A stretch of DNA of 41,839 bases. Origin: a virus. Position numbers and translations under genes: made by a program. Positions 141-41,839 of this stretch are shown here, in pieces. Where the stretch lies: IMG/VR virus record IMGVR_UViG_3300044994_000073; one strand, 5' to 3'. Position 1 is the stretch's first letter. Every line of letters starts with the position of its first letter. Under the pieces are notes generated by a model. That model did no database searches. It saw only the letters and a list, made by a program, of their open reading frames with translations, and was not told where the DNA came from.

Positions 141-151
141 AAAAAAAAAAA
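141..151. repeat. A11 homopolymer directly inside the left array
   Basis: Read directly (gggcg-aaaaaaaaaaa-ggttgg). Confidence 0.95.
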
Positions 152-153
152 GG

Positions 154-498
154 TTGGCGGTAAAACAGTTTTCTGCAAAACTGGAAACCGTGGGCCTAGA
201 AAAACAAACTGACGCCCAAGCAGAGGAGCGCAGCCGCCTTGTAAGCTTGGGCAAAGAGATCGCCGAACGAATTGGCTGCAACCCCGGCACGGTCTCTGAA
301 GATCGTCTGGTTAACCTAGCCCGGGCTTATGAGCTGCGGGCGGACAATTCCACGCTTAGGAAGATATTCCGGGCGCATAGGGTGTCTCGAAGAGAGGAAT
401 ACGAGCTTCCTAGGGAGGGGGTTTTCTGGAACGCGGAGCGCATCCGCGTAGGCACTGAAATCTGGACAATCGCGGACAGGAAGTGGGGTAGTCCTTAA
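154..498 (+). CDS. Hypothetical protein (114 aa as tracked). Start uncertain: TTG at 154, no internal ATG, no convincing SD.
   Basis: Long ORF in the co-directional gene block. The same frame stays open upstream through the whole 15-bp array. No recognisable motif. Confidence 0.4.
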   Translation: MAVKQFSAKLETVGLEKQTDAQAEERSRLVSLGKEIAERIGCNPGTVSEDRLVNLARAYELRADNSTLRKIFRAHRVSRREEYELPREGVFWNAERIRVGTEIWTIADRKWGSP

Positions 499-537
499 CA
501 GGCGTATGGTCTAAGAAAATCTGCGCTGGTCCCGCCC

Positions 538-3555: not shown

Positions 3556-3603
3556 TGTATGCTGATGTTGGTTCATGGGTTTTGCCCTGTGTGAGTTGTG
3601 TGG

Positions 3604-3639
3604 CGGGCCGGATAGCGGTGTTGCTGTCCGGCCCGTTTT
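3604..3639 (+). terminator. Intrinsic-terminator-like hairpin after terL
   Basis: Perfect 9-bp stem CGGGCCGGA / TCCGGCCCG (3604-3612 / 3627-3635), 14-nt loop, followed by TTTT. Confidence 0.45.
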
Positions 3640-3642
3640 GCG

Positions 3643-3671
3643 TTGCGACTGAAGCGACGCGGGGCTACTAT
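3643..3671 (+). promoter_or_regulatory. Candidate sigma70-like promoter for the dNMP kinase gene
   Basis: TTGCGA (3643-3648), 17-nt spacer, TACTAT (3666-3671). The ATG at 3684 gives a very short leader. Confidence 0.3.
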
Positions 3672-9461: not shown

Positions 9462-9737
9462 ATGAAACTGGTCTGCACTAAGCAGGTCTTCTTTCGCTCG
9501 ACCCTGTTCTCTCCCGGCGATGTTGTGGAGAGAATGGGGGATGAGCCGGAGGACTGCTTTAAGCCAGCAGAAGAAGTGCAGCAGGCTCCTCTCGCTGATG
9601 CAGGGGAGGAGCCTGTAACACTCTATGACCTTCAGAAACCGAAACGTAAACCCCGGGCTTCTGGCGGGACAAAAATTGCGGGCACCGGCGGATTTACTGC
9701 CGATGTTAAGCCCGAAGACTTGGACATCCTTAGCTAA
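9462..9737 (+). CDS. Hypothetical protein (91 aa)
   Basis: ORF in the operon. The stop overlaps the next start (TAATG). Confidence 0.55.
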   Translation: MKLVCTKQVFFRSTLFSPGDVVERMGDEPEDCFKPAEEVQQAPLADAGEEPVTLYDLQKPKRKPRASGGTKIAGTGGFTADVKPEDLDILS

Positions 9738-18000: not shown

Positions 18001-21000
18001 CGAAAAGTTCAAAGACCAAGAGCACAAAAACAAGTATTTCACCGAAGAAGAGCAAAAACAAAAAGCGGAGAAGGTCGGATTCTCGCAATCCAAGCAGGAC
18101 GAGCAAACCGTCGGGATGGTTGACAATATGGTCCAGCGGCAAGAATTTGAAAAGCTGCTGGCTCAGAATTTCCGCTATGTCGCGCAGTATTGGGACTCCG
18201 GAAACTTCCAAGGCTATGTCGCCTCAAATTCATTTGAGAAAGTGGACAAGTTCCTGAAAGCCGCAGGTGATCTGAACAACAAGTTCAGCACCGGCCCGCT
18301 TGTGCATTATGTGAGCGGGGACCCGGTTGTTCGCCGTGGCCAAGTTGTATCCACCACTGGCGCGGAAACTCAAGAAGGCTCTCCGGCATTTACTGATTTT
18401 AAGGCCGTCTTTGGAGCAAAGCGTTTTGTCGATTCTTTGGTCGGGGCCCTTCTGGAAGGCTACCCTCAGTTGGGCGGAAAAGCCACCGAATTAGAGCTCT
18501 TGGGGCTTAAATCGGATAAAGAAGACGAAAAGCTTAAAGAGAAGAAAAAGCAGATCAGAAAAGAGCTTGTCGGAAAAATGACCGACAAAGAAAAAGAGGG
18601 CCTCATCAAAAAGTTTGTTGAGCGAATCGAAGACAATTTGATCTGGCTGTATAACAAGACTCCTAAAGACTTCAGAGAAAAATCTTCCAGATGGTATGTT
18701 GGAGCGAATAGGCTAGCAAATGAACTCGCTGAAAAATACGGCATCACGATAGAGCAATCGTCGGCCATCATCGCTGTTTTGAGTCCGCGGACGGCTTGGG
18801 ACCTCAACATCGGACAAGCCATTTGGGTGATGCGGGTAATGACTGATCCTACCGCCGTCGTCACTCAAAATTTGATCGACAGTTTTTATGCAGGATTGGA
18901 GGACTCTGTAACGGATGGGGAAAAACCCCTTGCTGATAAAGACGCATTGGCCGGTCTAATAGGCAAGCCGATAAATGAAATTGAAAATCTGGACCATCAG
19001 GCGTGGATGCTGCGAGCTTATGTTGAGTCACAAGACCGCAGCTATCATATTTACGACCCCACTGGAACTCCGGTCGGCAAAGCGATCGACAAGGAAGGCA
19101 AACTGTCAGAATTGGCGTGGAATAGCTATGGAAATACAAAGAAAGCCATAGAAATTTTCAAAGGCGCAGACATCGAAAAAATCAGCGATTTGCTGGGCGG
19201 CGCGCATAAAATACGAAACTTCTACAATAACATCGTTGACCCAACAAACGCTGAAAGTGTAACCATCGATACGCACGCTATCGCCGCCGCGTTGTTCGCG
19301 CCTTTAAGTCAAAAAAGCAAACCGGCCAATGACGTTTTTAGCGGGCCGTCTAACACTGAGCTTGGGCTTAAAGGCCTTTACATACTCTATGATGAGGGCT
19401 ACAAGCGCGCGGCTTCTAAACTCGGTATCACTTCAAGAGAACTTCAAAGCATCGTTTGGGAAGCGGCCCGTTCAGTATTCACGGACACACTGAAACGGGA
19501 TAAAGCCCTTGTTGAAAAAGTGTCCGCAGAATGGGCCGAATTCCAGAACGGTGGTCAGTCGCTAGAAGAAACCCGAGAAAAGATTTTTAAGTTGGTTGAC
19601 GGATTTAAGCAAAACCCGCGCAACTGGGTTTCCGATACAGACGTTAAAGAAAACGACATCGCCGCCGGAGTTAACATCCGGCTTGAATCTGAAAACGGTG
19701 AAGCCCGAACCAAGAGCGGCTTGAGTAGTCTTCAGGCCCAACAACTCATCGAACGTGAGTTCGGCGCAATCGCCAGAAAACTTAAAGCGGGCTTGAGTCA
19801 GAACTACATTGGCCATGACGCAAGCTACATTTATTCCGGCAGGCAAGGCTCCCATTACATCGAATTCAACCCATCGGCATTAGCAAACGACTACACTATC
19901 GACGAGATTCGCGCGGCAATGCGCGAAGAAATCGTGCACGCTGCGATTGGTCAAGTGCTCAGAAAACGCGGCCTAAGCTGGACACAGTTTCACGAAAACG
20001 TGGCCAAGCTGATGACCAAAGATGAAAAAGCCGCGCTCAAAAAAGTCTATACGTCTTTGAGCCTAAAAGACCATGTCGGTGTCGGTGCGGAGTTTGTTCG
20101 GCTCATCATTCAGAAGCAACTTTATCATGTCGCGACCGAAGAGGCGTCCGGCAAGAGCCGAGCCGTTAAGTATGTGCTGAAGGCCGTCGCTCAGGCCCAT
20201 AATTTCCTACGGCGGCTCAAAGCGGACAGCAGTGCCGAGGCCCAGCAAATCCGGGCCGTGATGAACGAAGCCGTGGACATCATCCGGTCTGCAGATAAGA
20301 CTTTACAATCTTCTCCGGGTAGGATACTATTCCAAAGTGAAAATGACCCAAGTGCTCAAAATGGCGGCAGTCAGGTTCTGGCTAGCCTTCCGCTGCCTGA
20401 GAAACAACTCTACTTTGCGTCTGAGCTACGTAATCAGGCGCAGGCTACTCTCGCCGCGCTACCTGTTCTCGACGCAAATCAAATTGCGCAAATAGTCGGC
20501 GGGGCCAAACTGGAGCAGCCGGGCGGCTCCGAAGTCATGGGGCTGTGGAGGACCCCGACCGGAATCGTTAAGGCCCTCGACTTTGACTCAGCCCTGCATC
20601 TTGAGGACTTAATAATCACCGGATACGGCGGGCTCGCTGCGGATATTTACGACTCCTCTAGCAATACTCCGGAAGAGACCAAGCTCAGACTTGTTGAGCG
20701 GTATCTGCTGCTGAATTCGATGAATTCGGGCACGCCGACTCAACTGCTGGGCATGACCGACATCTATGGTCCGCCGACTCTGCTTATCAGCCAGCCAGAA
20801 ATGTTCGGCGTGCCGAACTGGTATGACGCTGATGTCAATGACGTAATTGACAAATTGCTAGAAAATAAAAAGGCCGTTAAAATCACCAACTTCCGATCTC
20901 TGCTGCTGAACGCCGATAGCACAGCGCAGACTTACGTGGTGCAGATTCCGTCCGGTGCTTATGTGCTGGTGTCGGATTTGCGGGGGCCCAACGCAGGCTA

Positions 21001-24000
21001 CACAGGGCTGGATCGAAAAGACGCTAAGACATTCGACCCCATAATCCGAATGCTCACACCGGGCGAGCTCAAGATTCCTGAGATTGCCGCCGCCGTTAAC
21101 GAGATCGAAACGAAGCAGCAAAATAATGCCTACTTCCAGAACGAGGACCGCGGGCCGCGGGTTAACGGAGCAATCGAATTCAATCCGGGTAACGTGACGA
21201 TACATCTGTTCAAGACCGCCAACTTGAGCACATTGCTGCATGAATTGGGCCACTTGTTTGTTGGGGAGCTGGAGCGTCAAGTTCGCGCTGGATTTGGCGG
21301 GCCGAAAGCCCTTGCCGAACTCAACACGCTCCGGGCTTTTGTTGGCGCGCTTGACCCAAGTAAAGAGCTGACCACTGAGCAGCACGAAAAGCTGGCCCGG
21401 GCCTTTGAAAGCTATCTTCGTGAAGGCCGCGCCCCGACGATCGGGCTCGCCCGCGCTTTCCACAGTTTCAGGACTTGGCTCACTGCAGTCTATCGTGGCA
21501 GCTCAATTCTCGACATTGAGATGAGCCAAGAGGTCAAAGAAGTGTTTGACCGGCTGCTGGCGGCTGAAGAGGAAATCGCTCAGGCCGAACAGTTCTACGG
21601 GAACCGAGACAGACTTTTAGCCCTGATCGCCGTTGAAAACGACGAAGAAAAACTCAAACAGAAACTAGAAGACGCCCGGCGATCCGAATTGGAGCACCAG
21701 ACATCGATCAGACTGAAAGCATACATTCGCGCCCTTGGCGGTCTCAGCAAAATTAAGACTGAGCAAACAGCTCAAGTTGAGTCACTGCCTGTTTACCAAG
21801 CAATCGAAAAAGCGAAAGCGCAAGGCGGCATATCGGCTGGTTCAATCGCCGCGTTGCTTGGTGACTCCGCCGTGGAGGTCCTCGCTAATAAATACCCGAA
21901 TCTAATCACCGATGACGGTCTAGACATTAGCGGGCTCGCTTTTGATGTTGGACTGACCAGCGGCGAGCAGCTCGCCGAACAGCTACGTGACGCGGTCCCG
22001 ATCAGCGAAGCAATCAATGCCGCTGTCAAACAAGAATTGCGCCGCGTTGAAGAGTCCATACGCAACGACATTTCGAAAAGCCCTATCACCGAAGCGGATG
22101 AAGCTCTGCATTCTGACAAGTCTCTAGAATATCTGATCGCCGAAACAGAGCTGCTACGATCCAAATTAAAAAGAAAATCGGTTCGACCGCGGCTCTTTGC
22201 TGAAGCCTACACGCAGGCCGCTGAGGAGTTCTTGGGCTCTCTCAAATTCTCAGACTCGATAAATTACTCTAGATTCCTGAATCAGGAAAAACGCCTTGGC
22301 GCGGAAGTCCTAGCCGCAGCCCGCAAAGGCGACTGGGACCGTGCTTACCAGTTGCGTGAAAAACAACTTTTGTATCACGCGATTGTCCGGGCCAGCATCA
22401 AGGCTCGCAAATACCGTGAGAATTTAGAGCGGCGGTATTCCAAGAGCAAAGTCAATTCGTTGCTCGACAAAATTGAAATGGCGTATCGGCCAGTGGTCCA
22501 GACTTTGTTGTCACGGTATGGACTGCTGCAGTTTGATGGCGCAGAGTTTAATCTGAGTGATTTGCGTGAACTCGACGAAGACGGCGGGTTGGACGCTTTG
22601 ATGCCGGACTGGATCAAGCAAAAACAGAATATCGGGGGCTACCGGAATCTGACACTTAGCCAAGTTCGCGAGCTTGACGAAACTATCAAGAGCATTGTCG
22701 CGTATGGCCGTGACGCCATGACATCGCTCAAAGAATCAGAAGCGAAGACGCTTAGCGAGTTTGTCCAGAGTAGCGTTGAGCGTATGCAAAAACTGAAAGA
22801 CGCCAAAACCGCTCAGCGCGGAGATTGGAACTACCCGCTCATTCAGTTCGCGCATCAGATCAAAGCCGGGGTTCAGATGGCCCAATTCGTGGCCGACATT
22901 GCTGACGGCTTCACCAATCTGAAAGAAGGCAAACAGGGTCCGCTCCGTAAGCTTTATCAGCGGCTCGTCACTGCTGAGCTGGAACAATCTAAGCTGGTTG
23001 ACACAGTGCTGAAGGCCAGTGAACCAGCTTGGCAAGTGCTGCATCAAGCCGTGCTACGAATTGAGAAGGAGATGGGCGGAAAGTATTTCGACATCGACGG
23101 GCTTGAGCTACCACATGCGATGGTCCGCGAAGGCAAAGGCAAATGGACCGGTGAGATGGTGGTATCTGCGCTGCTCAACTGCGGGAACCAAGGCAACCTC
23201 ACCGCGCTTCGAGAGGGCTACAATCTTCCGGAAGATGCCGCCGACCGATTGGCCGCTCTGCTAACAGCTGAAGAGCTCTACGCCATTCAGAAGATATGGG
23301 ATGCCACTGATCTGCTGTTCGAGCCTATCAATCAGACCCACATCAAAATCTACAACCGGGAAATCAAAAAAGTCCAAGCCGATCCGTTGGTGCTCCGTTC
23401 GAAAGACGGCGCGGGCGTCAACCTAAGAGGCGGCTACTACCCGCTGATATTTGACCACGAAATCAATGCACGCGCCGGTAGGTTCAACGAAGAAGACCTG
23501 ATGAAGAACAAAGCCGCTGCGGTGTTTCGTTCGGTCACGCCAAACAGCGGGTTTGCTAAAACACGCCAAGGCACCTCGTTGCCGCCTGAACTGTCTCTCA
23601 ATGTGTGGATCAATCATGTTATCGACGCGAGCCGCTACGCAATGCTCGCGCCGGTAATTCGAGACTGGAACCGCGTATCGACCAAAGAAGAATGGCGCGA
23701 AACGTATCTCGATAAATTTGGCCGCGAGTCTTACAACGCGCTGCGAGACTGGGTCAAGTATCAGGCGGTGCCTAAACGTATGCAGACTGAGTCTTGGGTC
23801 CGGGGGCTCGACAAAGCCGCCGACTGGCTTAGGGCCCGATCCAGTTATGCGTTGTTGGGGTATAAACTCGTCTCTGGTCTCGCGCAGCGCACTGCGCTGC
23901 TTAACTCCGCGGTGGCTCTTGGCGGGTGGAAGTGGATCGGAATTGGATACTCTGCCGTTGCTCAAAAGGGGCTTGGCACCGCGTTGATTGGAACAACCAA

Positions 24001-24865
24001 CACTGACGCATGGAGCGCGATCATTGGGAAAAGCGAATACATGCGAAAACGGGAAGACAACATCGATCGCGAGATTCGCGACATTGTCAGCCGAATCCAA
24101 CTTGGCAAAAAAGTCTTCACGATTGCCGGGCGGGAATTCACTGTGAGCAATGTCCGCGATCTGGCGTTTGAGTGGATGAAAATGAACGACCGAGCTGTGG
24201 TTTCAGTTGTGTGGTCTGGCGCGTATCAAAAGTATCTCCAGACTCTAGCTGATGAGAGCATGACATTAGAACAGCGGGAGAAAGCCGCCGTGGAATACGC
24301 TGACACCGTCGTTCAAGACACCCAGCCGTCTGCGCTCAAAGCGGAAATGAGCTCCGCCGCCAGAGCAGAGGGGTGGGTGCGACTGTTCACCATGCTAATG
24401 ACGTGGTCCTTCAAATTTGGCAACCGCCTGTTCTACTACGGTAAGGCCTACTCAGAAGGCGCAGTGTCAACCAAAAACTATATTCGGCACATAACCTATG
24501 AGGTCTTTATGGAATCGTGGCTCCGCACATTGCTTTACAGCGCGATCGCCGGGACCGCGCCCGAATGGTGGAGATTCCTAGTCGGACCCATAGAAAACTT
24601 GATCCAATGGATTCCGATTATCCGCGACATTCCGGGAACTCTGGCGACAAAAGGCCAACTGCTAGACCTGAACAGATCGCCTTATATGGAAGGCTTCAGA
24701 AGAATCAGTAAGCTCATTAAATCCGCCGATCCGGAGAAGCTCCAAGAAGACGACGGCGTGAGCAGATTCGCTATGGATTTGTTCCGGGCCACCGCGTTTG
24801 TCACCGGCACCCCCATAGACAACATCGTCAATGACATCCGGCGATTCACTGATAGAAAGGATTAA
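15095..24865 (+). CDS. Giant 3256-aa virion/ejection 'polyvalent' protein (gp16 position) with a CmoA-like SAM-enzyme domain and a HExxH module
   Basis: Single uninterrupted 9771-nt ORF between the internal virion proteins and the tail fiber. Class I SAM-fold motifs at aa 816-1046. HELGH at aa 2049-2053. Confidence 0.9.
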   Translation: MDPFEQPQEDNGILATAGLDSAPPAPKQLQPSVADSGSSLLDAAGLPSAEESLRLPKGGAAFADQIPGELLKMPKALRAEYVAKLSGDIQEGLKWMGESPEKAAEIAAVMRRFNLPADKAKEQLPEIKASEESIKIAKELLATDEKGEPLYPALAKLAADPSHLIGDNERRKALMEIEESVRQSKQADEGFLTQQARGIVNALFSLLDTGVSSYHAVAAARADAYWQQILDNLPAGIDPQVRDELIKIKDEALNQSIEIRNARSEIAESMLGGFSPEKAANFFKPQAGESPTELISKGFYTEGAYQFVNQGLQSLYDWAAASVAAAGNPTGAMALLSAKSAFGAFDEAQRDGASKENAIVRAGGHGLLEYVFEKLGTLGIIKEASSVKKLTPKSMLGLASRSYATEAVSEGATSAFQNLVTIATDGNMGLREFLFSISDSALAGGFSGAAMSTIISTASYGLNYKKIHNAENKLAQHDGLAEKIKFVAAKNADPQATQSAVETILNEHQVSDEVFVPASKVRNLFQTDEQYVEFMGKLGVSEQQAIDALTNEAASELKVKYSAYLAHSATVSNIESIKADLRFGENNMTANEAAMTKAWLNEEINTIRERLAAESTGVLPAQIQAIRESLKNFRNQDGGGFTQEQIDHYLNLMLSGAAIAAKRQDVSVEDWLSANGVNVNVNTKAVFAPDGKSIWIIPEGQPSPQELYAKDMAEQREFMRQKMLENPNFTDEDFQRWAEEWRAAHPRFDKNGKQLFQEAPESSNRSPRVGLEFKDFFRKVTSGLFGKSKIPFVPELIDLSKDKKIIEEMHKYIGNFDDHIFKSIPAFYELKVRTIKGFLTLPKGSKVLDIAASEGSFGKTISALSKGKIETVSLDPNRAMKKTFDDLPQAPGAAFAAEAFLNGFRDEEDGVTYNAHNPDVKYDAIHESMGFQFIDPDRTAQIAEVVRLLKDDGLFVTSEKLLNPDWEKNEKFKDQEHKNKYFTEEEQKQKAEKVGFSQSKQDEQTVGMVDNMVQRQEFEKLLAQNFRYVAQYWDSGNFQGYVASNSFEKVDKFLKAAGDLNNKFSTGPLVHYVSGDPVVRRGQVVSTTGAETQEGSPAFTDFKAVFGAKRFVDSLVGALLEGYPQLGGKATELELLGLKSDKEDEKLKEKKKQIRKELVGKMTDKEKEGLIKKFVERIEDNLIWLYNKTPKDFREKSSRWYVGANRLANELAEKYGITIEQSSAIIAVLSPRTAWDLNIGQAIWVMRVMTDPTAVVTQNLIDSFYAGLEDSVTDGEKPLADKDALAGLIGKPINEIENLDHQAWMLRAYVESQDRSYHIYDPTGTPVGKAIDKEGKLSELAWNSYGNTKKAIEIFKGADIEKISDLLGGAHKIRNFYNNIVDPTNAESVTIDTHAIAAALFAPLSQKSKPANDVFSGPSNTELGLKGLYILYDEGYKRAASKLGITSRELQSIVWEAARSVFTDTLKRDKALVEKVSAEWAEFQNGGQSLEETREKIFKLVDGFKQNPRNWVSDTDVKENDIAAGVNIRLESENGEARTKSGLSSLQAQQLIEREFGAIARKLKAGLSQNYIGHDASYIYSGRQGSHYIEFNPSALANDYTIDEIRAAMREEIVHAAIGQVLRKRGLSWTQFHENVAKLMTKDEKAALKKVYTSLSLKDHVGVGAEFVRLIIQKQLYHVATEEASGKSRAVKYVLKAVAQAHNFLRRLKADSSAEAQQIRAVMNEAVDIIRSADKTLQSSPGRILFQSENDPSAQNGGSQVLASLPLPEKQLYFASELRNQAQATLAALPVLDANQIAQIVGGAKLEQPGGSEVMGLWRTPTGIVKALDFDSALHLEDLIITGYGGLAADIYDSSSNTPEETKLRLVERYLLLNSMNSGTPTQLLGMTDIYGPPTLLISQPEMFGVPNWYDADVNDVIDKLLENKKAVKITNFRSLLLNADSTAQTYVVQIPSGAYVLVSDLRGPNAGYTGLDRKDAKTFDPIIRMLTPGELKIPEIAAAVNEIETKQQNNAYFQNEDRGPRVNGAIEFNPGNVTIHLFKTANLSTLLHELGHLFVGELERQVRAGFGGPKALAELNTLRAFVGALDPSKELTTEQHEKLARAFESYLREGRAPTIGLARAFHSFRTWLTAVYRGSSILDIEMSQEVKEVFDRLLAAEEEIAQAEQFYGNRDRLLALIAVENDEEKLKQKLEDARRSELEHQTSIRLKAYIRALGGLSKIKTEQTAQVESLPVYQAIEKAKAQGGISAGSIAALLGDSAVEVLANKYPNLITDDGLDISGLAFDVGLTSGEQLAEQLRDAVPISEAINAAVKQELRRVEESIRNDISKSPITEADEALHSDKSLEYLIAETELLRSKLKRKSVRPRLFAEAYTQAAEEFLGSLKFSDSINYSRFLNQEKRLGAEVLAAARKGDWDRAYQLREKQLLYHAIVRASIKARKYRENLERRYSKSKVNSLLDKIEMAYRPVVQTLLSRYGLLQFDGAEFNLSDLRELDEDGGLDALMPDWIKQKQNIGGYRNLTLSQVRELDETIKSIVAYGRDAMTSLKESEAKTLSEFVQSSVERMQKLKDAKTAQRGDWNYPLIQFAHQIKAGVQMAQFVADIADGFTNLKEGKQGPLRKLYQRLVTAELEQSKLVDTVLKASEPAWQVLHQAVLRIEKEMGGKYFDIDGLELPHAMVREGKGKWTGEMVVSALLNCGNQGNLTALREGYNLPEDAADRLAALLTAEELYAIQKIWDATDLLFEPINQTHIKIYNREIKKVQADPLVLRSKDGAGVNLRGGYYPLIFDHEINARAGRFNEEDLMKNKAAAVFRSVTPNSGFAKTRQGTSLPPELSLNVWINHVIDASRYAMLAPVIRDWNRVSTKEEWRETYLDKFGRESYNALRDWVKYQAVPKRMQTESWVRGLDKAADWLRARSSYALLGYKLVSGLAQRTALLNSAVALGGWKWIGIGYSAVAQKGLGTALIGTTNTDAWSAIIGKSEYMRKREDNIDREIRDIVSRIQLGKKVFTIAGREFTVSNVRDLAFEWMKMNDRAVVSVVWSGAYQKYLQTLADESMTLEQREKAAVEYADTVVQDTQPSALKAEMSSAARAEGWVRLFTMLMTWSFKFGNRLFYYGKAYSEGAVSTKNYIRHITYEVFMESWLRTLLYSAIAGTAPEWWRFLVGPIENLIQWIPIIRDIPGTLATKGQLLDLNRSPYMEGFRRISKLIKSADPEKLQEDDGVSRFAMDLFRATAFVTGTPIDNIVNDIRRFTDRKD

Positions 24866-32339: not shown

Positions 32340-34153
32340 TGGAAGCTCCGATTGATCAGGCTTTCACGTTCGGAAACGGGAATCTCCCGCACGTTCTTCA
32401 ATCCGGCCCGGGTCAAATAGGCCTTAATGAGATCGATGTTGCCGGGGGCTTTGCTGGCGAACTCAACGCAAGCTTTTTTCCACGCCTCATCGTTGGCAAA
32501 CTCCGCGGCGGCAGGCTCAGCAGCAGCAGCAGCGGCGGCGGCAGGCTCAGCAGCAGCGGCGGCAGGCTCAGCAGCAGCGGCGGCAGGCTCAGCAGCAGCG
32601 GCGGCAGGCTCAGCAGCAGCGGCGGCAGGCTCAGCAGCAGCGGCGGCAGGCTCAGCAGCAGCGGCGGCAGGCTCAGCAGCAGCGGGTTCCGGCTCCGGCT
32701 TTTTACCGCGCTTCTTTGGCGAAGCGGGCTGCGGCTCAGTTTGGGGTTGAGCAGCGGATTCGGCCAGAATGTCAGCGGCCTGAATGAAGCCGTTGCCGAT
32801 TGCACGGAATGCGCGGCTCAGATTAACAGCATTTAGGGATTGGTTCATGGTCTCTTTCTTTGGTTCGGGTTTGGGTTCTTGTTTAGACTTTGCGAGAATC
32901 TTCTCCAAAGTCAACATCTTTTTTAATATCACATTCGCGATCATGGCGTCAATAGAATTTTCCGCCACAAGATAATAAATGTTGACCGGCTTGTTTTGCC
33001 CGATTCTGTGGGCACGGTCTTCGGCCTGTTCGTTGACCCCCGGGGTCCAGTCGTATTCAGCGAAAACAACAATCGGCGCGGCGGTCAATGTAATTCCGAC
33101 GCCCGCGGCGCGTATGTTGCCGATGAACACCCGGCAATCCGGATCGGTCTGAAACCGGTTAACAATTTGCTGGCGGCTACTGACAGATGTCGAGCCGTCA
33201 ATGACCAAGGCCCGCTTTCCGAAGTGCTGCCGAAGCCCGTCAATGACGGCCTTGTGGTGCGCGAACACCAGCACTTTTTCGCCGGTTTCTTCCAGCAAAT
33301 TCTCAACAAAATCTATAGCCGCTGGCAGCTTTTGCTCACCCAATGCGGCGCGCAACGTGGCCAAGTCGCCGAGGTGCTCAAACTCTACGTCCCAGCCCGT
33401 TTCGGCTGCTTGGATCATGCCGATTTTTCCATCGACCGCCTGCTCAATGACGGCCCTGCCAGAGTCCGTAATCTGAACGGGCACCACCTGACGGGTCTTT
33501 GGCGGCAACTCCGTGAGCACGTCGGCTTTGGTTCGGCGTAACATGATCGGCTCCAATTTCTGGCGGAGCTCTGCGGTGTTGGTGGCCCCGCGTCCGCCCC
33601 CGAACAGCCCGCCGCAATAGCGAATCTTGAAAGCGGTCAGGCTCGACACGATCTTTTGCCGCAACCACCAGAGCACGGGATACAATTCCAGCGGGCGATT
33701 TAGCACTGGCGATCCAGACATGGCCCACCGCCGCACGGATGGGATAGTGAGCAGTGCTTTAGTTCTTTGACTGCGGGCTTGCTTGATGTAGTGGGCCTCG
33801 TCCGCTATGACCAAGCCCCACTTCCTTGCGCACAAAGATTTGTGGTGCGCTTTCAAAATGTCATAGTTGACAATAGTCACCAGAGGCAAACCGCTGTCAT
33901 GTTTCGCTTTTTTGCCAGATAGAATGCCGGCGTGCGGATACCATTCCGGGCACCACATCTTAATTTCAGCAAGCCAGTTGGCTTTCAGAGTAGCCGGGCA
34001 CACTATCAGCACGCCATCCTCAAGACGAACAGCCCGCCGAGCAGCAACAAGGGCCTGAGCCGTCTTGCCCAAGCCCATTTCATCAGCTAGCAAGGCCTCA
34101 TTTCTCTGAGCCAGAAACAGTGCTCCGGCTTCTTGGTAATGCCGGAGCTGCAT
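32336..34153 (-). CDS. SNF2-family helicase with repeat linker and extra C-terminal domain
   Basis: DEMGLGKT, VIADEAHYIK, QAEDRAHRIGQ. ATGA overlap with the nuclease gene. Confidence 0.93.
   Translation of the reverse strand: MQLRHYQEAGALFLAQRNEALLADEMGLGKTAQALVAARRAVRLEDGVLIVCPATLKANWLAEIKMWCPEWYPHAGILSGKKAKHDSGLPLVTIVNYDILKAHHKSLCARKWGLVIADEAHYIKQARSQRTKALLTIPSVRRWAMSGSPVLNRPLELYPVLWWLRQKIVSSLTAFKIRYCGGLFGGGRGATNTAELRQKLEPIMLRRTKADVLTELPPKTRQVVPVQITDSGRAVIEQAVDGKIGMIQAAETGWDVEFEHLGDLATLRAALGEQKLPAAIDFVENLLEETGEKVLVFAHHKAVIDGLRQHFGKRALVIDGSTSVSSRQQIVNRFQTDPDCRVFIGNIRAAGVGITLTAAPIVVFAEYDWTPGVNEQAEDRAHRIGQNKPVNIYYLVAENSIDAMIANVILKKMLTLEKILAKSKQEPKPEPKKETMNQSLNAVNLSRAFRAIGNGFIQAADILAESAAQPQTEPQPASPKKRGKKPEPEPAAAEPAAAAAEPAAAAAEPAAAAAEPAAAAAEPAAAAAEPAAAAAEPAAAAAAAAEPAAAEFANDEAWKKACVEFASKAPGNIDLIKAYLTRAGLKNVREIPVSERESLINRSFQ
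32506..32690. repeat. In-frame 21-bp tandem repeat (one 30-bp copy, then seven at 21-bp period) encoding (AAAAEPA)n in the SNF2 gene
   Basis: GCAGGCTCAG starts at 32511, 32541, 32562, 32583, 32604, 32625, 32646 and 32667. Confidence 0.95.
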
Positions 34154-34501: not shown

Positions 34502-34732
34502 ATGAGAACACCGCAAAACCCGTTCTGGAACGTGGGCGACCAGACCAAGCTCGCCGAATACGCCCACATCACGCCTGCTAATCTCAACTCCATCATTCAC
34601 CGGAAACGCCGCGTGTCGTGGCGCATGGCGTGCCGATTGGAGGAAGCCGCAGAAAAAGCATTAGGAAAACCGATACCAGCCGCTGAATGGATTAACCCCG
34701 CATCGAAACACCCCGCCTTTGACACCGAATGA
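34502..34732 (+). CDS. Helix-turn-helix transcriptional regulator (Cro/YdaS-like, 76 aa)
   Basis: LAEYAHITPANLNSIIHRKRRVSWRMACRLEEA reads as an HTH. Divergent from the replication operon and overlaps the primase start (ATGA). Confidence 0.6.
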   Translation: MRTPQNPFWNVGDQTKLAEYAHITPANLNSIIHRKRRVSWRMACRLEEAAEKALGKPIPAAEWINPASKHPAFDTE

Positions 34733-36681
34733 CACCGCCGAAGTTTTCCGCCCCGGTAGATGGGGCCCTGTGGATGGTGTCCCAAGGCTTCCGGGTCTTT
34801 CCATGTAAGCCGAGAGCTAAAACGCCTCTCGTAAAAGATTGGGCTGCGTGGTCTTCAGAGGCCACAGAGCAGACCATCATCGAGTTTGCTTCTCGCAATC
34901 CCGGCTGTAATTGGGCCATCGCTCTTGACTCCGAGCACATCGTATTGGACATCGATGACGGGCTCAAACCGTCATCGACTGGCTTCAAGCGCACACACGG
35001 AAAAGCGAACCTGCGCAATAAACTCACCGGCATAGCGAACCCTTTGCCGAAAACTTTGATAGTTAAAACGCCGTCTGGCGGTTTGCATTTGTATTACCGG
35101 GGGCACGGAAAAAATACCGCGTCCGTGATATGCCAAGACGTGGACACCAAGACAGCGGGCGGGTATGTGTTGGCCCCTGCCAGTGTCGGAATCAGGCATG
35201 AGTCCGAAGACGATTTTGACGGCACATCGGCATATTACGAGATAGAGAACACGGGCCCCATTGTTGAAGCCCCGCAGTGGCTCAGTGATGCGTTTGATTC
35301 AACCACCAAAAAAGACACGGCTCCGGTGCTGCCAGAGCGAGTCCACCAAGGCTCCCGCAATCACACTCTTGCAAGCTTAGCTGGCTCTATTCGAGCCCGC
35401 GGCGCAAATTATGAGACCGTGCTCGCCGCTCTGGAGGCGTTCAATAAGACTCAAATTGAGCCGCCGCTGAGCCAATACGAAGTCGAGGCCGTAGCACGGA
35501 GCGTGTCGAGGTATGAGCCGCAGCACGCCAAAGTCGCTGCGGAGTTCACGGTCACGGCTGAAGAGCCGTGGTCATTCCGCAGAGTTTGCGACATCCGACC
35601 CGCGGATATACCGCCCCGTGACTGGGTGCTTGCCGATTGCTACCTAGGCAAATTTATCACGGTGCTTGTTTCGCCGGGCGGCGTAGGCAAATCGACTATC
35701 GGGTTGCTTGACGCCCTATCAATCGCCACTGGCGAGCCGCTATCCGGACACGCAGTGATCAAACAGGGCGGCGTGCTGATATACAACGCCGAAGACCCGC
35801 TGGACGAGTTGGAACGCCGAGCCGCAGCAATGGCTCAGCACCACAACATCAAACTCGCGGACATCCCGAACGTGCATCTCTTATCCGGGCGGTCCAAACC
35901 AATCGTGTTCGCCAAGCCGGATAGCAACGGCGACACCGTGATAAACGAAGACGCGATCAAGCGTCTAGCCGATTGGATGGTGAAAAACGGCATCGTGTGG
36001 GCCGCGTTTGATCCTTTCGTCCGGACACACGGAGTCAACGAAAACGACAACCGGGCAATCGACAAAGTAGCGCAGGCCTACCAACTGCTAGCCGAATTAA
36101 CGGGCTCAAGCATAGCGATTGTGCACCACACCAACAAAGGCGCGGCCAACGCCGAAGACTCCGCCAGTGCGAACCACGCCCGCGGCGCAAGCGCACTGGT
36201 CAATGCCGCCAGAATCGCGCACGTCCTGACCAACATGCGCGATCCGGGAGAAGCGACCAAAGCAGGCTTTCCACCGGAGATGTATAGGTGGTATTTCAAA
36301 CGAGAAAACGCCAAAGCGAACCTAAGCGCGCCAGCGGACAAGGCCGAATGGTATAAACGAGTCAGCTGCCAGCTTCCAAATGGCGAAACTGTGGGTGTCT
36401 GCGAGCGAGCGCAAACAGCCGCTCTGGTTGTCATGGAACGCGAACGTCTGCTCAACGGAATCCGTGAACGGGCCCAGCTGCAGTGCAAACCGGGAGCCGG
36501 AGCGGTGCCCTACAGCCGTTTGCATCCCTACGTATCGAACAGTGCGAAAGCAAAAGCCGACATCATCGAAGCCCTCAGAGGCCGCAGAGAGTATCGGTGC
36601 GTAGATGCTGGCGTGATCCGGCTCACCGATACGGAAATCCATAATGCCGCGATTGTCGAAGCCATGAATGACTTTCTGTGA
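34729..36681 (+). CDS. Bifunctional primase-polymerase (prim-pol) / PriCT / RepA-like P-loop helicase
   Basis: Prim-pol motifs IALDSEHIVLDIDD, SGGLHLYY, GGYVLAPAS. PriCT-like SRNHTLASLAGSIRARG. Walker A SPGGVGKST. Confidence 0.88.
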   Translation: MTPPKFSAPVDGALWMVSQGFRVFPCKPRAKTPLVKDWAAWSSEATEQTIIEFASRNPGCNWAIALDSEHIVLDIDDGLKPSSTGFKRTHGKANLRNKLTGIANPLPKTLIVKTPSGGLHLYYRGHGKNTASVICQDVDTKTAGGYVLAPASVGIRHESEDDFDGTSAYYEIENTGPIVEAPQWLSDAFDSTTKKDTAPVLPERVHQGSRNHTLASLAGSIRARGANYETVLAALEAFNKTQIEPPLSQYEVEAVARSVSRYEPQHAKVAAEFTVTAEEPWSFRRVCDIRPADIPPRDWVLADCYLGKFITVLVSPGGVGKSTIGLLDALSIATGEPLSGHAVIKQGGVLIYNAEDPLDELERRAAAMAQHHNIKLADIPNVHLLSGRSKPIVFAKPDSNGDTVINEDAIKRLADWMVKNGIVWAAFDPFVRTHGVNENDNRAIDKVAQAYQLLAELTGSSIAIVHHTNKGAANAEDSASANHARGASALVNAARIAHVLTNMRDPGEATKAGFPPEMYRWYFKRENAKANLSAPADKAEWYKRVSCQLPNGETVGVCERAQTAALVVMERERLLNGIRERAQLQCKPGAGAVPYSRLHPYVSNSAKAKADIIEALRGRREYRCVDAGVIRLTDTEIHNAAIVEAMNDFL

Positions 36682-36703: not shown

Positions 36704-36747
36704 AAAAAAGACCCGGCAGCGATAAGCCGCCGGGTCTTTCCGTTTTT
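36704..36747. terminator. Bidirectional intrinsic terminator between convergent operons
   Basis: A6, then 8-bp GC stem GACCCGGC / GCCGGGTC (36710-36717 / 36729-36736), then TTTCCGTTTTT. Confidence 0.75.
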
Positions 36748-36976: not shown

Positions 36977-37717
36977 TTATTTTCTGACTTTCGCCAGAAA
37001 AGCCTCATCCGTCAAAGAGCCTGCGAACCCGCATTTTTCGACCTTGGAATCGCCGAATTTAGCGGTCTTCAGATTGCATTTGACAAAACTACAATAGGCT
37101 ACCGAAGCGAGCTCGAAAGTCGAGCTGTCAAATCCGCATTTGAAAAAGTCGGTGCCCCTAAGTCCGGCCCGCGAAAAATTCACACCGCCGAATCCGCAGA
37201 AGTCAAACAACGAGTCGTAAATCGAAGCGAAGCACAGGTCCGCCCCATTAAACAGCGTGCTCCTGAAATTGCTGAATTCCAGCAAGCAGCCAATAAGTTT
37301 TGCGCTCAAAAAATTCCCGCGCTTTCCGGAGAAATCGCGGAAATCCGCATTTTCAAGGTCCGCATACTCGAACACGGATTCGTTTGATTTTGCGCCGTAA
37401 AACGATGTTTTGCGAGCGACCGCGGTAGTAAAATTCACATGCTCAAGTGAGGCGTCTTTGAACGTGGCCCCGGAAATATCGGAGCCCTCAAATGAAGCGT
37501 GCTTAATGATCGCGCCTTTAAGATTCGCATCGGTCAGCTTACAACCCTTAAATGACACGCCGAGAAGATAGCTACCAGACAGGTCAACACCACTAAGTCC
37601 GGTATATTCCAAATCAATTTTGTTTCTGATAGCGTCTTTTACGGCGGCGGTGAAGTCAACGGCTTCAACGGAATAAACGATTTGCCCAGTGCGGATATTG
37701 TAGATTGATTGGTTCAT
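36977..37717 (-). CDS. Pentapeptide-repeat protein 1 (246 aa)
   Basis: Continuous A(D/N)LXX-type repeats (GVDLSGSYLLGVSFKGCKLTDANLKGAIIKHASFEGSDISGATFKDASLEHVNF...). Short N-terminal cap IRTGQIVYSVEAVDFTAAVKDAI. Confidence 0.9.
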   Translation of the reverse strand: MNQSIYNIRTGQIVYSVEAVDFTAAVKDAIRNKIDLEYTGLSGVDLSGSYLLGVSFKGCKLTDANLKGAIIKHASFEGSDISGATFKDASLEHVNFTTAVARKTSFYGAKSNESVFEYADLENADFRDFSGKRGNFLSAKLIGCLLEFSNFRSTLFNGADLCFASIYDSLFDFCGFGGVNFSRAGLRGTDFFKCGFDSSTFELASVAYCSFVKCNLKTAKFGDSKVEKCGFAGSLTDEAFLAKVRK

Positions 37718-37741
37718 GGTTTTATCACGGTTAAGAGTTTG

Positions 37742-38491
37742 TTAAGTGGAAGATTTTTTAAGTGCCTCGCCATCGATCAGTGCATCGGTGAAATCGGCGT
37801 TGGCTGTATCAGATTTACGCAAATTGGAGCCTCGCAAATCGGCACGAATGAACGTCGCATTGGTGAGGCCCGCATACTCGAAATTGCACTCGTAAAAGTC
37901 ACCGCCCGGAGCGTAGGCACCTTCCAGCTCCGCGCCGCTGAAGTTGCACTGAGCGGCGTCAATGCCGCCGATGTAAGCACCGGTCAGATCGGCTGACTCA
38001 AAATTCGCACGGCAGCAAATAGCGCGGCAGAAATTAGCATCGGCCAGATTAGAGCGGGCAAAATCCGCACTAATTGCGCGCGACTTCTCAAAAGTGGAGC
38101 CGCTCAAATCGCCGTCTGAGAACGTGCAGAGTTCAAGATCGGAGTCAAAAAAGCTGGCGTTTTTCGCGGACACAAACGACAAGTCAGAGTCATACAAACA
38201 CGCATTGGCCAGATTCGCCCGGTCAAGATTTGTCCGAATCAGTGAAGCAGCTTCCAGATTCGCACCAGCCAGATCGGAATCCTTCAAATTGCATCCATCG
38301 AGATTGGCTCTGTAGAAGTCCGCTCCGACCAAATATAGTTTGCTCAGATCGAGCCCCTGCAGCCGGGCATAGCGAAAACTGACGCCCTTCTTAACCGCGC
38401 TCTCGATGTCTTTTCTCAGATGGTTCGGCGTAGTCACCAGAATCGGCTGACCAGAAGGTCCGCCAAGTATCGTTATTTTTTCGTCGTTCAT
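37742..38491 (-). CDS. Pentapeptide-repeat protein 2 (249 aa)
   Basis: ARLQGLDLSKLYLVGADFYRANLDGCNLKDSDLAGANLEAASLIRTNLDRANLANACLYDSDL... ATG at 38491 with an SD-like AAGAAAG. The longer tracked start overlaps PRP3. Confidence 0.9.
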   Translation of the reverse strand: MNDEKITILGGPSGQPILVTTPNHLRKDIESAVKKGVSFRYARLQGLDLSKLYLVGADFYRANLDGCNLKDSDLAGANLEAASLIRTNLDRANLANACLYDSDLSFVSAKNASFFDSDLELCTFSDGDLSGSTFEKSRAISADFARSNLADANFCRAICCRANFESADLTGAYIGGIDAAQCNFSGAELEGAYAPGGDFYECNFEYAGLTNATFIRADLRGSNLRKSDTANADFTDALIDGEALKKSST

Positions 38492-38543
38492 GGTTTTGTG
38501 CTTCTTTCTTGATTGTTTCAGTTGTTTAGGTTGTTGCGTTTGA

Positions 38544-39083
38544 CTACAAAAGTGCGTTTTCGAATATCGCTCCTTCAATCTGAGACCGATCGAGGTCCGC
38601 ATCTTCTAGGCAAGCTCCACGGAAAATGCACCCACGTAAATCAGCTCCGGTGAGTTTAGCACCAGTAAGATCGGCACCGGAAAAATCAGAGCAGCACAGT
38701 ATCGCGCCGGTAAAATTGGCCCCGGCCAATATGGAGCCCCGGAAGTCCACAAACCGGGCCTGACAAACTGACAGGCACGCCAGCCGGAGATTCGCTCCAA
38801 CAAATTCCGCGTTTTCAATGTCCGCGTTGTAAAGATCGGCGGACTCAAGATTCGCGCCTGCAAACAACGCCCGCCGAAGTGAGCTGTCTTGGAGCTGGCA
38901 GTTGCGCAGATCGGCGGCTATTAGGTTCCCGCTATTGGCAACCACACCGGCTAGGCTCTGGTTTTTTAGATCGACACCCGCTAAACTGATGCCTCTATGG
39001 ACTGCTGCGGTGATTGACTCTGCAAGCCCGCCGTCAAATTTGAACACGGGCTGGCCCCATTTAGATTTAAGTTTTGTTGTCAT
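38544..39083 (-). CDS. Pentapeptide-repeat protein 3 (179 aa)
   Basis: GVDLKNQSLAGVVANSGNLIAADLRNCQLQDSSLRRALFAGANLESADLYNADIENAEFVGANLRLACL... Confidence 0.9.
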   Translation of the reverse strand: MTTKLKSKWGQPVFKFDGGLAESITAAVHRGISLAGVDLKNQSLAGVVANSGNLIAADLRNCQLQDSSLRRALFAGANLESADLYNADIENAEFVGANLRLACLSVCQARFVDFRGSILAGANFTGAILCCSDFSGADLTGAKLTGADLRGCIFRGACLEDADLDRSQIEGAIFENALL

Positions 39084-40463: not shown

Positions 40464-41231
40464 TTAAAATATTGAATCTGAAGCACTTACAGAGCTGCTG
40501 TTCTCCGTATGAGTCGTTATATTTGCGGGTGGCCACGTGGTCAACTGCGGATTCTGACGAACCCATGCCGCGCATGAGTCTATCCATGACCACATCAGCC
40601 CGACTTCCGGCCAGATTCCCGGCTTACGCAGAGAGTAGGGCAAACTCGCACGCTGTTCCGGCGATAGAGGTAACGCCACAGAGCAACCCGCAGTTGCATC
40701 ACGAAGCGCATCAGCACCGCCGCAAAGCCACTGAAGAGCATCCAGCCACTGATGCAATGTCCATCGGATGGTCTTTGGCAATCCGTGGTGCTCTTTCGAT
40801 TCGATGGTGGATTCCGCCCGGGTCCAGCAGACCCACTGAAGCGGTTTAACGTCCACAAGTAGCTTGTCTGCCCACAAAGGCCTTGGGTGCCTCAAAACAA
40901 TCGGCATCCCGGTTCGGTAGTCTATGGCTAGGGGGACCACGCCGTCCGGGTGCTCCGCAGAGAACAGAGCCAGCCATTGACTGCGACGCAGCGCGGAGTA
41001 GCGGTAGTGCTCTTTTTGACGCCCGGACATGTTCTCCAGATCGGCACTGCTGGCCAGCAGTCCGGATTGATGCGACTTGCGGGCCCGGTAACGTCGCATC
41101 CGCTCTGCGGTCTTGGCACGTTGCCGTTGTTTTTGCTCCATGTTCGGGTCGGCTTTTAGTAGTTCACGGATTGCCGCCAACGTGTCGGGGTCCGCCGCGG
41201 CAATGGCGGACAAGAGCTGATTAGGTGTCAT
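40464..41231 (-). CDS. First early protein (255 aa), Trp-rich, with N-terminal basic motif AERMRRYRARK
   Basis: Long ORF directly downstream of the candidate early promoter. No recognisable enzymatic motif. Confidence 0.6.
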   Translation of the reverse strand: MTPNQLLSAIAAADPDTLAAIRELLKADPNMEQKQRQRAKTAERMRRYRARKSHQSGLLASSADLENMSGRQKEHYRYSALRRSQWLALFSAEHPDGVVPLAIDYRTGMPIVLRHPRPLWADKLLVDVKPLQWVCWTRAESTIESKEHHGLPKTIRWTLHQWLDALQWLCGGADALRDATAGCSVALPLSPEQRASLPYSLRKPGIWPEVGLMWSWIDSCAAWVRQNPQLTTWPPANITTHTENSSSVSASDSIF

Positions 41232-41696
41232 ACAGAGCCCATTATTGGCCAGCTGTAGTGCAAAGTCAACCTATAACATCGCTATTACAGCAGGTTGACC
41301 GTTGTAACGATTGCTAGTTTTTCGGCTCTTTCTGCGGAACTAGCGATGTTACGCGAAAACTAGCAAAAGCTAGCCGTTACGCTCGTAACGCTGCAAGTTT
41401 TTCGCTATTACAACAAGTAACATTGCTATTTTTTGAATGTTACGTTTTTAACTGCAGGACTAGCACGTTACGCACTATGAAAAACGGCATTTTTTTGTTA
41501 GGCGTAACAAGTTTTTCGCTAGTTTTTGCAAGTCTATTTTTGAGAATAAAAGCAAGTAACACCAGAAGCGGCTTGCGTTCTTTTCATGTAAAACGCTAGT
41601 TCTCATCGGTGTCCTTCGGACACTCTCTGCGCCGTGCCGTTACGTTACGGCACCGGCGCGGCGAGTAGAGGACACCGTGATGCAGCAGCCAGCAGC
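41232..41696. promoter_or_regulatory. Non-coding, AT-rich, repeat-dense control region (candidate early promoter cluster / origin / packaging region)
   Basis: No credible ORF. 12 GTWAC pentamers, 3 CTAGC-N0-3-GTTACGC composites, repeated CGCTATTACA, AACATYGCTATT and AGTTTTTCG words, and GC hairpins at 41609-41653. Confidence 0.7.
41241..41269 (-). promoter_or_regulatory. Candidate sigma70-type early promoter giving a near-leaderless transcript
   Basis: Minus strand: TTGACT (41264-41269), 17-nt spacer, AATAAT (41241-41246). The ATG at 41231 is 9 nt after the -10. Confidence 0.45.
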
Positions 41697-41839
41697 GGCT
41701 GGCTAGCTGGATGCTGGCTAGCTGGATGCTGGCTAGCTGGATGCTGGCTAGCTGGATGCTGGCTAGCTGGATGCTGGCTAGCTGGATGCTGGCTAGCTGG
41801 ATGCTGGCTAGCTGGATGCTGGCTAGCTGGATGCTGGCT
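41697..41839. repeat. Right terminal tandem array: one degenerate copy (GGCTGGCTAGCTGGA), 8 full copies and 8 nt of the 15-bp unit
   Basis: Read directly. Same register as the left array. Confidence 0.97.

Follow-up and report, generated by a model that had tools for sequence, protein, structure and literature searches.

In the basic replicon of plasmids, an unwinding element, iterons, an operator/promoter and a rep gene follow one another, and in the satellite phage P4 the ori and crr repeats are recognised by the C-terminal domain of the alpha primase-helicase, a DnaG-type primase with a superfamily 3 (SF3) helicase. The analysis described here concerns a repeat-rich region in IMG/VR virus record IMGVR_UViG_3300044994_000073, a window of 41,839 nucleotides (all positions below are counted along this whole stretch) that represents a complete phage genome of ~41.7 kb. 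The region, at 41232–41696, is the single large non-coding one of the genome; two gene blocks diverge from there, and gene orientation and GC skew both switch exactly at this place. It contains a cluster of the pentamer GTWAC (GTAAC or GTTAC) that is almost certainly a conserved array of protein-binding sites, with the binding itself predicted from the sequence. The reading favored here, to which a probability of roughly 40% is given, is that the array is an iteron-type replication origin and, at the same time, the operator of the orphan gene beside it.

Eleven GTWAC pentamers lie in the region, at 41304, 41348, 41376, 41385, 41417, 41439, 41467, 41504, 41556, 41639 and 41644; the initial annotation had listed all of these positions but gave a count of 12 for 41304–41648, having counted 41304 twice. 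From the base composition of the region, 0.97 would be expected per 465 bp, and dinucleotide shuffles of the region gave 1.6 (maximum 8 in 2000). Genome-wide counting against shuffles had been proposed as a check, and it places the density well over chance: in whole-genome dinucleotide shuffles (n = 300) the best 465-bp window held a mean of 3.3 and never more than 6, and in the phage itself 32 further copies occur in the 41 kb outside the region. No 5-mer is more strongly enriched in the region than GTAAC/GTTAC (11, where the remainder of the genome predicts 0.37; P ~3e-13), and CGTWACG (5 vs 0.02), GCTAGTT/AACTAGC (5 vs 0.03) and CTAG (7 vs 0.72) are also enriched. Several copies do extend to GTWACGC, as had been reported, with five in either orientation within the region and five across the remaining 41 kb; the three CTAGC–GTTACGC composites are likewise present, with a spacer of N1–3. 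The repeated words that had been noticed are all there, some of them one base away from where they had been placed: CGCTATTACA is found at 41280 and 41403, AACATYGCTATT at 41275 and 41419, and AGTTTTTCG at 41316, 41396 and 41510.

A comparison with related phages had also been suggested, and it was made with one diverged relative, the contig L083, which covers the region up to 41595 and is ~18% diverged within it. Identity at non-site positions is 80%, and eight of the nine pentamers compared are unchanged in place, the ninth (the site in the unit called U3 below) being present but displaced by 2 nt; among random sets of nine 5-mers, conservation of at least 8/9 had a probability of 0.009. An 11-bp duplication/insertion in L083 at the unit U1 creates an additional, tenth GTAAC. 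The flanks of the pentamers vary, with GTTACGC becoming GTTACTT or GTTACCT, which argues that the pentamer and not the heptamer is the selected core. The idea of iterated binding sites is thus upheld by the strong clustering and by the conservation of the pentamers amid changing flanks, although the protein that would bind them was not identified. A block at 41478–41570 is nearly identical in L083. The only open reading frame (ORF) candidate in 41232–41696 comprises 40 aa from the ATG at 41477 and is frameshifted in L083, which rules out a small membrane peptide and leaves no conserved ORF, in agreement with the earlier description of the region as non-coding. The nearby GTWAC pair to which the initial annotation had pointed does exist, at 40382 and 40397, but its link to the array fails since one pentamer is lost in L083; as a second operator the pair was rejected for this same loss, though the promoter-like hexamers there are kept.

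Further relatives of the region were sought in several ways. The search of viral contigs with the terminase small subunit TerS returned nothing, the search of the same with the Prim-Pol found L204, which ends before reaching the region, and a 19-mer search of metagenome contigs gave one chance match. The pattern GTAAC...GCTAGTTTTT gave single chance matches only in viral contigs, plus an ascertainment-biased family of low-GC phages with cgGTAAC arrays.

An alignment showed that GTWAC is one end of a composite unit of ~21 bp with the consensus nnCTGnAnA(A/C)TAGCnAT-GTTAC, in which the spacer between TAGC and GTTAC is N1–4. Six copies of the unit were aligned, with TAGC and GTTA invariant in all of them, and their orientation from left to right is - - + + - +. 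The earlier, pentamer-centred view had captured the GTWAC repeats while overlooking this longer unit, the position of the last two GTTAC at the tip of a palindrome, and an expandable tandem array at the window ends. The units and the paired sites, the former all defined by alignment, are located as follows.

41272–41293, minus strand: unit U1, a composite unit with an ATAAC variant at the pentamer end
41304–41325, minus strand: unit U5, GTAAC-GATT-GCTAGTTTTT
41332–41352, plus strand: unit U2, CTGCGGAACTAGCGATGTTAC
41356–41380, plus strand: unit U6, AAAACTAGCAAAAGCTAGCC-GTTAC
41376–41389, no strand assigned: two pentamers head to head, GTTAC-GCTC-GTAAC, each in the palindromic form CGTWACG
41417–41443, U4 on the minus strand: unit U4, GTAACATTGCTATTTTTT, together with the GTTAC at 41439
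41452–41471, plus strand: unit U3, CTGCAGGACTAGCAC-GTTAC

Pentamers without the remainder of the unit are found, outside the palindrome, at 41385, 41439, 41504 and 41556, and the gaps between successive pentamers are 44, 28, 9, 32, 22, 28, 37 and 52 bp. Much of the arrangement is inverted: U1 and U2 form an inverted repeat with 85% identity over 20 nt, U5/U2 and U4/U3 are inverted pairs centred at ~41328 and ~41444 with 116 bp between the centres, and within 41417–41443 perfect inverted arms of 8 bp (GTAACATT / AATGTTAC) flank a T-tract. The U1/U2, U5/U2 and U4/U3 pairs, together with GTTAC-N4-GTAAC, therefore provide a dyad symmetry that would suit a dimeric repressor. In L083, U5 keeps its pentamer and GCTAGTTTTT with an altered spacer, AACTAGCGATGTTAC of U2 is identical at 15/15 positions, and U6 retains GTTAC and has lost both CTAGC boxes. 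Both pentamers of the head-to-head pair are retained, their spacer being one base shorter, and U4 with its two pentamers is conserved, with differences in the spacer and in the base preceding GTTAC.

The other parts that matter for a replication origin are arranged around these units.

40464–41231, minus strand: first leftward (early) gene, an ORFan of 255 aa in the place of a rep/regulator gene beside the array
41241–41269, minus strand: candidate early promoter P_L, with a -35 element TTGACT (41269–41264), a spacer of 17 nt and a -10 element AATAAT (41246–41241)
41395–41594, no strand assigned: AT-rich tract with the lowest GC content of any 200 bp in the genome (34.5% GC vs 53.6%)
41603–41680, no strand assigned: imperfect GC-rich palindrome, 78 bp long, in which ~30 positions pair and the last two GTWAC form the tip, GTTACGTTAC (41639–41648)
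34729–36681, plus strand: fusion of Prim-Pol, PriCT-1 and an RSF1010-RepA-like helicase, recognised by Pfam and PDB matches

A consensus scan scored P_L, which is of the sigma-70 type, at 10 of 12 matches, and its hexamers are kept in L083 (TTGACT / GATAAT) with a 17-nt spacer that differs at several positions; the early promoter that had been suggested for the region thus has a good candidate. The ATG of the first leftward gene (41231) follows the -10 element by 9 nt, with transcription predicted to start at ~41234, so that the messenger RNA from P_L would be nearly leaderless. U1 starts 3 bp beyond the -35 element and therefore abuts the predicted promoter, as the sites of an operator would.

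The AT-rich tract lies within the most AT-rich 400 bp of the genome (41207–41606) and contains the GTAAC at 41504 and 41556. Tracts of four or more T occur nine times in the region, where 1.7 would be expected, and eight of the nine are in the AT-rich tract, on the plus strand. It is a candidate for a DNA-unwinding or bent segment, and as an AT-rich element adjacent to the repeats it would be predicted to serve in unwinding. The palindrome folds on both strands, and no other 86-nt stretch of the genome gives a fold as stable (-51.1 kcal/mol and z = -7.0 as RNA, z = -5.5 as DNA). Over the parts covered, it is 100% identical in L206 and 99% in L207, which are contigs of near-identical strains. 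An intrinsic terminator was considered for it and rejected, since neither strand has a T-run, unlike the hairpins at 3600–3645 and 36707–36745. Strong hairpins of the genome lie downstream of terL (3600–3645) and of the capsid gene (near 9480–9565), and another separates the Prim-Pol gene from a 62-aa gene that converges on it (36707–36745); the first and the last have T-runs and look like classical intrinsic terminators, that at 36707–36745 being bidirectional. A search of Rfam gave no match at the gathering score, with spurious sub-threshold microRNA matches to the tandem array only. At the left foot of the palindrome (41595–41610), three samples yielded contigs of related strains that have an end here: L083 stops at 41595, and L206 and L207 start at 41598 and 41610. 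Three assemblies of the window's own strain run through these positions; the contig ends may reflect a physical end, a strain-variation fork or an effect of the palindrome.

Read from right to left, the palindrome, the AT-rich, T-tract-rich 200 bp, the repeat units, the sigma-70-type promoter and the first early gene, transcribed away, follow one another. This order of parts is that of a plasmid-type basic replicon, and an origin is favored for this reason. It is also favored because gene orientation and skew switch here, because the phage has its own RepA-like helicase and Prim-Pol, because related arrays are of the origin type, and because the distance to the late promoter is not critical (see below). 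The earlier suggestion of an origin gains from the AT-rich maximum, the palindrome and the place at the switch of gene orientation, and six units of ~21 bp exceed the three or more repeated units of ~17–22 bp that characterise iteron origins, with their role as initiator-binding sites being predicted. According to the model, the GTWAC pentamers would be the conserved core of ~10 sites, six of them full units, for one phage-encoded sequence-specific DNA-binding protein. This protein, expressed from the early promoter, would coat the units, and the unit that abuts the -35 element of P_L would provide autoregulation. The adjacent AT-rich tract would then open and the Prim-Pol/helicase would be loaded, possibly with the palindrome acting as a hairpin priming or loading signal, after which fork movement would be co-directional with the two diverging gene blocks.

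Several observations weigh against this model. The units are of mixed orientation, largely inverted and irregularly spaced, which is more operator-like than classical direct iterons, and an arrangement of direct, regularly spaced and helix-phased units was not found. No DnaA or IHF consensus sites are present in the region, DnaA boxes having been sought as TTATCCACA-like words with at most one mismatch. The adjacent gene, an ORFan with an uninformative model, bears no Rep, O, DnaA-like or winged-helix signature. The evidence from conservation is thin, since a single diverged relative spans the array; in MW202496.1, a relative at the family level whose genes are laid out in the same way, the genes at the divergence point are only 38 bp apart, which leaves no room for such an array; and the GC skew is confounded by the direction of transcription.

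The candidates for the binding protein are the early protein of 255 aa next to the array and the C-terminal domain of the Prim-Pol/RepA-like helicase. The former had no Pfam or PHROG match, and searches of 5.8 billion and 1.8 billion proteins turned up a single homologue cluster; its full-length identity to the L083 copy is 88%, and its structure prediction (mean pLDDT 43) is confident only for residues 1–56, which include a long basic helix. A basic-helix motif, T..RMR.YR.RK, that looked specific in a pattern search and appeared to link this protein to an array-bearing ORF of another phage (L052, see below) was dismissed as over-fitting, since an unbiased BLOSUM scan with the peptide 15-mer gave many better random matches (30–37 for the top listed ones vs ~24 for the L052 segment by hand scoring), and BLASTP found no similarity either. 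In the fusion protein, residues 292–544 match RepA (PDB 1g8y, E = 4e-17), with further matches to Pfam AAA_25 and to pRN1 ORF904 (E = 3e-4), and an origin at this place would need to recruit the Prim-Pol/helicase as its replicase. It carries a C-terminal extension of ~100 aa without assigned function, for which the model is uninformative (mean pLDDT 40). One small Cro/YdaS-like helix-turn-helix (HTH) gene, encoding 76 aa, was found, at 34502–34732, and its own upstream region has no GTWAC. None of the binders that the initial annotation had put forward could accordingly be singled out, the first early protein being an ORFan and the structure models uninformative, and no cognate repressor or activator of the array was identified beyond this small HTH gene.

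Repeat arrays were also looked for in other phages by a blind scan for clustered 5-mers, in loci that had been retrieved by similarity of TerL only and that share the structural module at 35–65% identity. In L055, GTTACCCAAAAAG occurs six times inside a Phage_rep_O gene (E = 1e-21), which is followed by DnaB, as is classical for lambda. In L015, iterons with GTCTAC/TAGAC repeats lie inside a DUF1376 gene, followed by a DnaB-like helicase. L052 has 15 GTWAC, of which ~11 are GTAACGC; they lie within a 472-aa ORFan and immediately before it, and the ORFan has a D5-like gene as its neighbour. In L042 (8290–8675) and L062 (8815–9000), 9–14 repeats with a GACAC core are found in both orientations around AT-rich DNA, in the spacer directly upstream of a TerS-like or small HTH gene. 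As judged from these sequences, repeat arrays are common in this phage group and usually tied to replication genes, and the GTTAC core recurs. Between the present phage and L052, no shared non-structural protein was detectable. Literature searches on GTTAC/GTAAC and on DUF1376 yielded nothing relevant. In an unrelated family of low-GC phages from IMG/VR (L087, L188, L200, L170, L189 and L182; 37–40% GC), an ascertainment-biased pattern scan showed an intergenic region with 7–12 cgGTAAC repeats, in which tandem direct copies are followed by an AT-rich stretch flanked by inverted pairs.

To the right of the palindrome, two further elements extend across the ends of the window.

41698–41839 and on to 1–127, plus strand: perfect tandem array of a 15-bp repeat (GCTGGCTAGCTGGAT), a variable-number repeat that amplifies the 18-mer GGCTAGCTGGATGCTGGC
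110–192, plus strand: candidate late-operon promoter cassette P_R, with the 18-mer, an A-run, a -35 element, an extended -10 element and a GTG at 190

The tandem array has at least 9.5 copies here and the assembly breaks in it, as do the independent contigs L081 and L082 of the same strain. In the near-identical strains L206 and L207, ~1.4 copies are present and 41598–41718 is joined straight to 107–503 of the window, which indicates that the genome is continuous across the window ends. With so few copies in near-identical strains, the array is a strain-specific expansion and not a required iteron set, and the 15-mers as essential iterons were rejected on these grounds. As a sigma-54 promoter (TGGCAC-N5-TTGCW) the 15-mer has three mismatches; with at most two mismatches there is no match in the region, and no activator domain was seen in the scanned proteins, so that this possibility was rejected too. 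The expansion places the GTWAC region at least 120 bp farther from the late promoter in a strain that was found in several samples, and since it is tolerated, the GTWAC sites need no fixed spacing to that promoter.

In P_R, the last copy of the 18-mer (110–127, at about -70) is followed by an UP-like A11 run (141–151), the -35 element TTGGCG (153–158) and the extended -10 element TGC-AAAACT (173–181), with 17 nt between TTGGCG and AAAACT; this -10 is too weak for the consensus scanner, and the predicted rightward start is at ~188. The cassette occurs twice in L206, ahead of two successive genes, and none of the three copies differs in the 18-mer or in TCTGCAAAACTGGA, so the 18-mer is a conserved element ~70 bp upstream of a candidate late promoter. 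The assignment of the cassette as the late-operon promoter is inferred from sequence. The homopolymer at 141–151 is A11 in the window and A7 in the near-identical strains (L206 144–150). In L206 and L207 the first late gene is called from an ATG inside the last 15-mer (124 aa), and the four extra A of the window put that ATG out of frame; each added 15-mer would add LASWM to the upstream reading frame. L206 and L207 also have an extra insert of ~530 bp after the first late gene (L206 489–1035 vs window 503–535) with one or two small genes, preceded by the second 18-mer/promoter-like cassette, which looks like a cassette-bounded gene insertion.

Nearly as likely as an origin, though doubtful by itself, is that the sites form a purely transcriptional early/late operator or activator array and that replication starts elsewhere. 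A dimeric or tetrameric phage regulator on U5/U2 and U4/U3, whose 116 bp amount to ~11 helical turns, and on U1 would then shut the strong P_L, possibly by looping, and would perhaps aid the weak late promoter. The inverted-repeat organisation, the position between divergent promoter candidates and the contact of U1 with the -35 element all fit this, as does the 11-bp insertion of L083 between P_L and the next unit, which is one helical turn; the 18-mer of the P_R cassette (about -70), a cassette duplicated before two L206 genes, again contains the GCTAGC core, so that at least the GCTAG boxes are promoter-associated. Yet ~10 sites over 290 bp are many for a simple operator, the distance to P_R is shifted by at least 120 bp without apparent harm, no repressor was identified (the Cro-like HTH gene having no GTWAC upstream), and the AT-rich maximum and the palindrome are left unexplained. 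A packaging (pac) region, where TerS would bind the repeats, a first cut would be made near the foot of the palindrome and headful packaging would proceed rightwards, is a good deal less likely. The terminase of P1 binds hexamers and that of SPP1 binds pacL and pacR boxes, TerL here is closest to P22-type headful terminases, the array lies upstream of the operon holding terS and terL, and arrays in L042 and L062 are placed directly upstream of a TerS-like or small HTH gene. The ends of three related-strain contigs from three samples within 15 bp (41595, 41598 and 41610) would agree with a cut, but are equally explained by a fork in the assembly graph or by the palindrome, and the three own-strain assemblies read through. 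As terS (1244–2098) is ~1.9 kb off, with three genes and the tandem array between, the sites are not adjacent to it, and packaging by TerS proved the weakest of the functions that had been proposed earlier.

That GTWAC is read by a factor of the host, such as a nucleoid protein, a response regulator or an alternative sigma factor common to the hosts of several unrelated phages, is very unlikely. It would account for GTWAC-core arrays in three lineages that were retrieved by TerL only (this phage, L052 and L055), among which this phage and L052 have no non-structural protein detectably in common. However, the array of L055 is inside a lambda-O-type initiator gene, pointing to a phage-encoded binder, the pentamer flanks differ among lineages, GTWAC stands at no fixed spacing from any -10-like element, and the region has no consensus match for CtrA, NtcA or sigma-54 any more than for DnaA or IHF. 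Least probable of all is that the repeats have no specific function and are what is left of duplications of a single short segment, decaying in non-coding DNA that evolves fast. Slippage and duplication are certainly evident, in the 15-bp array, the 11-bp duplication of L083 and the changes in homopolymer length, but tandem slippage cannot yield mixed orientation, the pentamers are kept while their neighbours in the same unit diverge, and the ninth site is kept despite an indel.

The genome around the region belongs to a new podovirus lineage, and the phage is present in SRR30649430 and in the JGI samples 3300044993, 3300044995, 3300044998, 3300044961 and 3300044939. Its capsid protein is 63% identical to those of BPP-1/epsilon15-type podoviruses, and the closest cultured relatives share 63% in the capsid protein and 37% in polymerase and terminase; DNA searches of phage and plasmid collections gave no match. 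The plus-strand gene block (~150 to 27578) encodes a RuvC-like nuclease, TerS, TerL, the portal, the capsid protein, a tail tube protein and a virion protein of 3256 aa, and the minus-strand block, from 41231 down to 27580, encodes three pentapeptide-repeat proteins, a helicase, a DUF2800 nuclease, an Enc34-type single-stranded DNA-binding protein and PolA, with the small HTH gene and the Prim-Pol/PriCT/RepA-like-helicase gene on the plus strand at 34502–36681. Neither an integrase nor a phage RNA polymerase was seen among the ORFs scanned against Pfam or PHROGs. The single 3256-aa ORF (15095–24865) has a DUF7178, a methyltransferase-like stretch and C-terminal 1200 aa matching phrog_9880, with no PDB sequence match, and its product is presumably an ejected internal virion protein. 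The three consecutive pentapeptide-repeat proteins of the early operon (246, 286 and 179 aa; 36977–39083, minus strand) are possible DNA mimics against host nucleases or gyrase, and a near-perfect 21-bp tandem repeat of 7.6 copies in the 3′ part of the helicase gene (32527–32685) encodes AAAAAEP repeats. GTAC is absent from the whole 41.8 kb (expected 64 by a Markov model, 161 by composition), and CCWGG (1 vs 43.5 expected), CGGCCG (0 vs 14), GCCGGC (2 vs 17) and GGCGCT/AGCGCC (0 vs 18) are depleted. GTAC is also missing from the fragments of a close relative (L001 and L083 were covered), whereas distant relatives show no such depletion; restriction sites are thus strongly avoided, which gives a hint of the restriction systems of the host.

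The region offers an obvious handle on the start of replication and on the early-to-late switch of a new phage lineage, with defined parts (~10 sites with an invariant 5-bp core, a promoter, an AT-rich tract and a palindrome) and a hypervariable 15-bp repeat that can serve to mark strains. In kind, a control or origin region that is rich in repeats and lies between diverging phage operons is ordinary, and nothing in it overturns current understanding. As in the p4/p6 region of phi29 and the operators O1–O3 of Mu, many sites are spread over 200–300 bp between divergent early and late promoters (predicted ones here) in A/T-tract-rich and, here, possibly bent DNA, but homologues of those regulators are missing, the site sequence is unrelated and the distance to the late promoter is not fixed. 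With the lambda-type origin in the O gene of L055, the locus has in common short GTTAC-core repeats near replication genes and the capsid/terminase module, with binding here predicted; the repeats of L055 are direct, regular and inside the Phage_rep_O gene beside DnaB, whereas they are non-coding here and no O-like gene is present.

The likeness to ori and crr of P4 lies in short repeat cores in both orientations and in a fused primase-helicase with a C-terminal extension. Unlike P4 alpha, the fusion here joins an archaeo-eukaryotic primase (AEP)-type Prim-Pol to a RepA/DnaB-like helicase, and DNA binding by its C-terminus might be expected by analogy. The origin oriV of IncQ plasmids (RSF1010) has, like this region, direct repeats, a GC-rich and an AT-rich segment and a large palindrome that carries primase entry sites; by analogy, the palindrome here might be recognised by the Prim-Pol, and RSF1010 RepA is the closest relative of solved structure to the helicase of this phage (E = 4e-17), which is thus of the RepA type. 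Regular direct repeats occur here only as the 15-mers, whose strain-specific expansion is dispensable, in contrast to those of oriV, and no RepC-like initiator was found among ~35 ORFs, a subset of all, that were put through family scans. A more specific version of the origin, which is unlikely in this full form, would be a self-contained plasmid-like replicon in a lytic podovirus with a BPP-1/epsilon15-type capsid, where an orphan initiator (the 255-aa protein or the C-terminus of the fusion) reads the GTWAC core of bipartite units and the palindrome with its two GTTAC is a hairpin entry site for the Prim-Pol; if true, this would be the logic of an IncQ-type/P4-type hybrid origin, which is not described for this phage group. 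The basic replicons of pSC101, F (ori2/repE) and P1 (oriR/repA) differ in that the units here are of mixed orientation and irregular spacing, DnaA boxes and IHF sites are lacking, the adjacent protein has no similarity to Rep, and the element resides in a lytic-looking podovirus with its own polymerase. What the locus shares with them is an AT-rich tract, repeats of ~20 bp, inverted copies by a promoter and a gene pointing away, and the pentamer-only inverted copies recall operators made of iteron halves.

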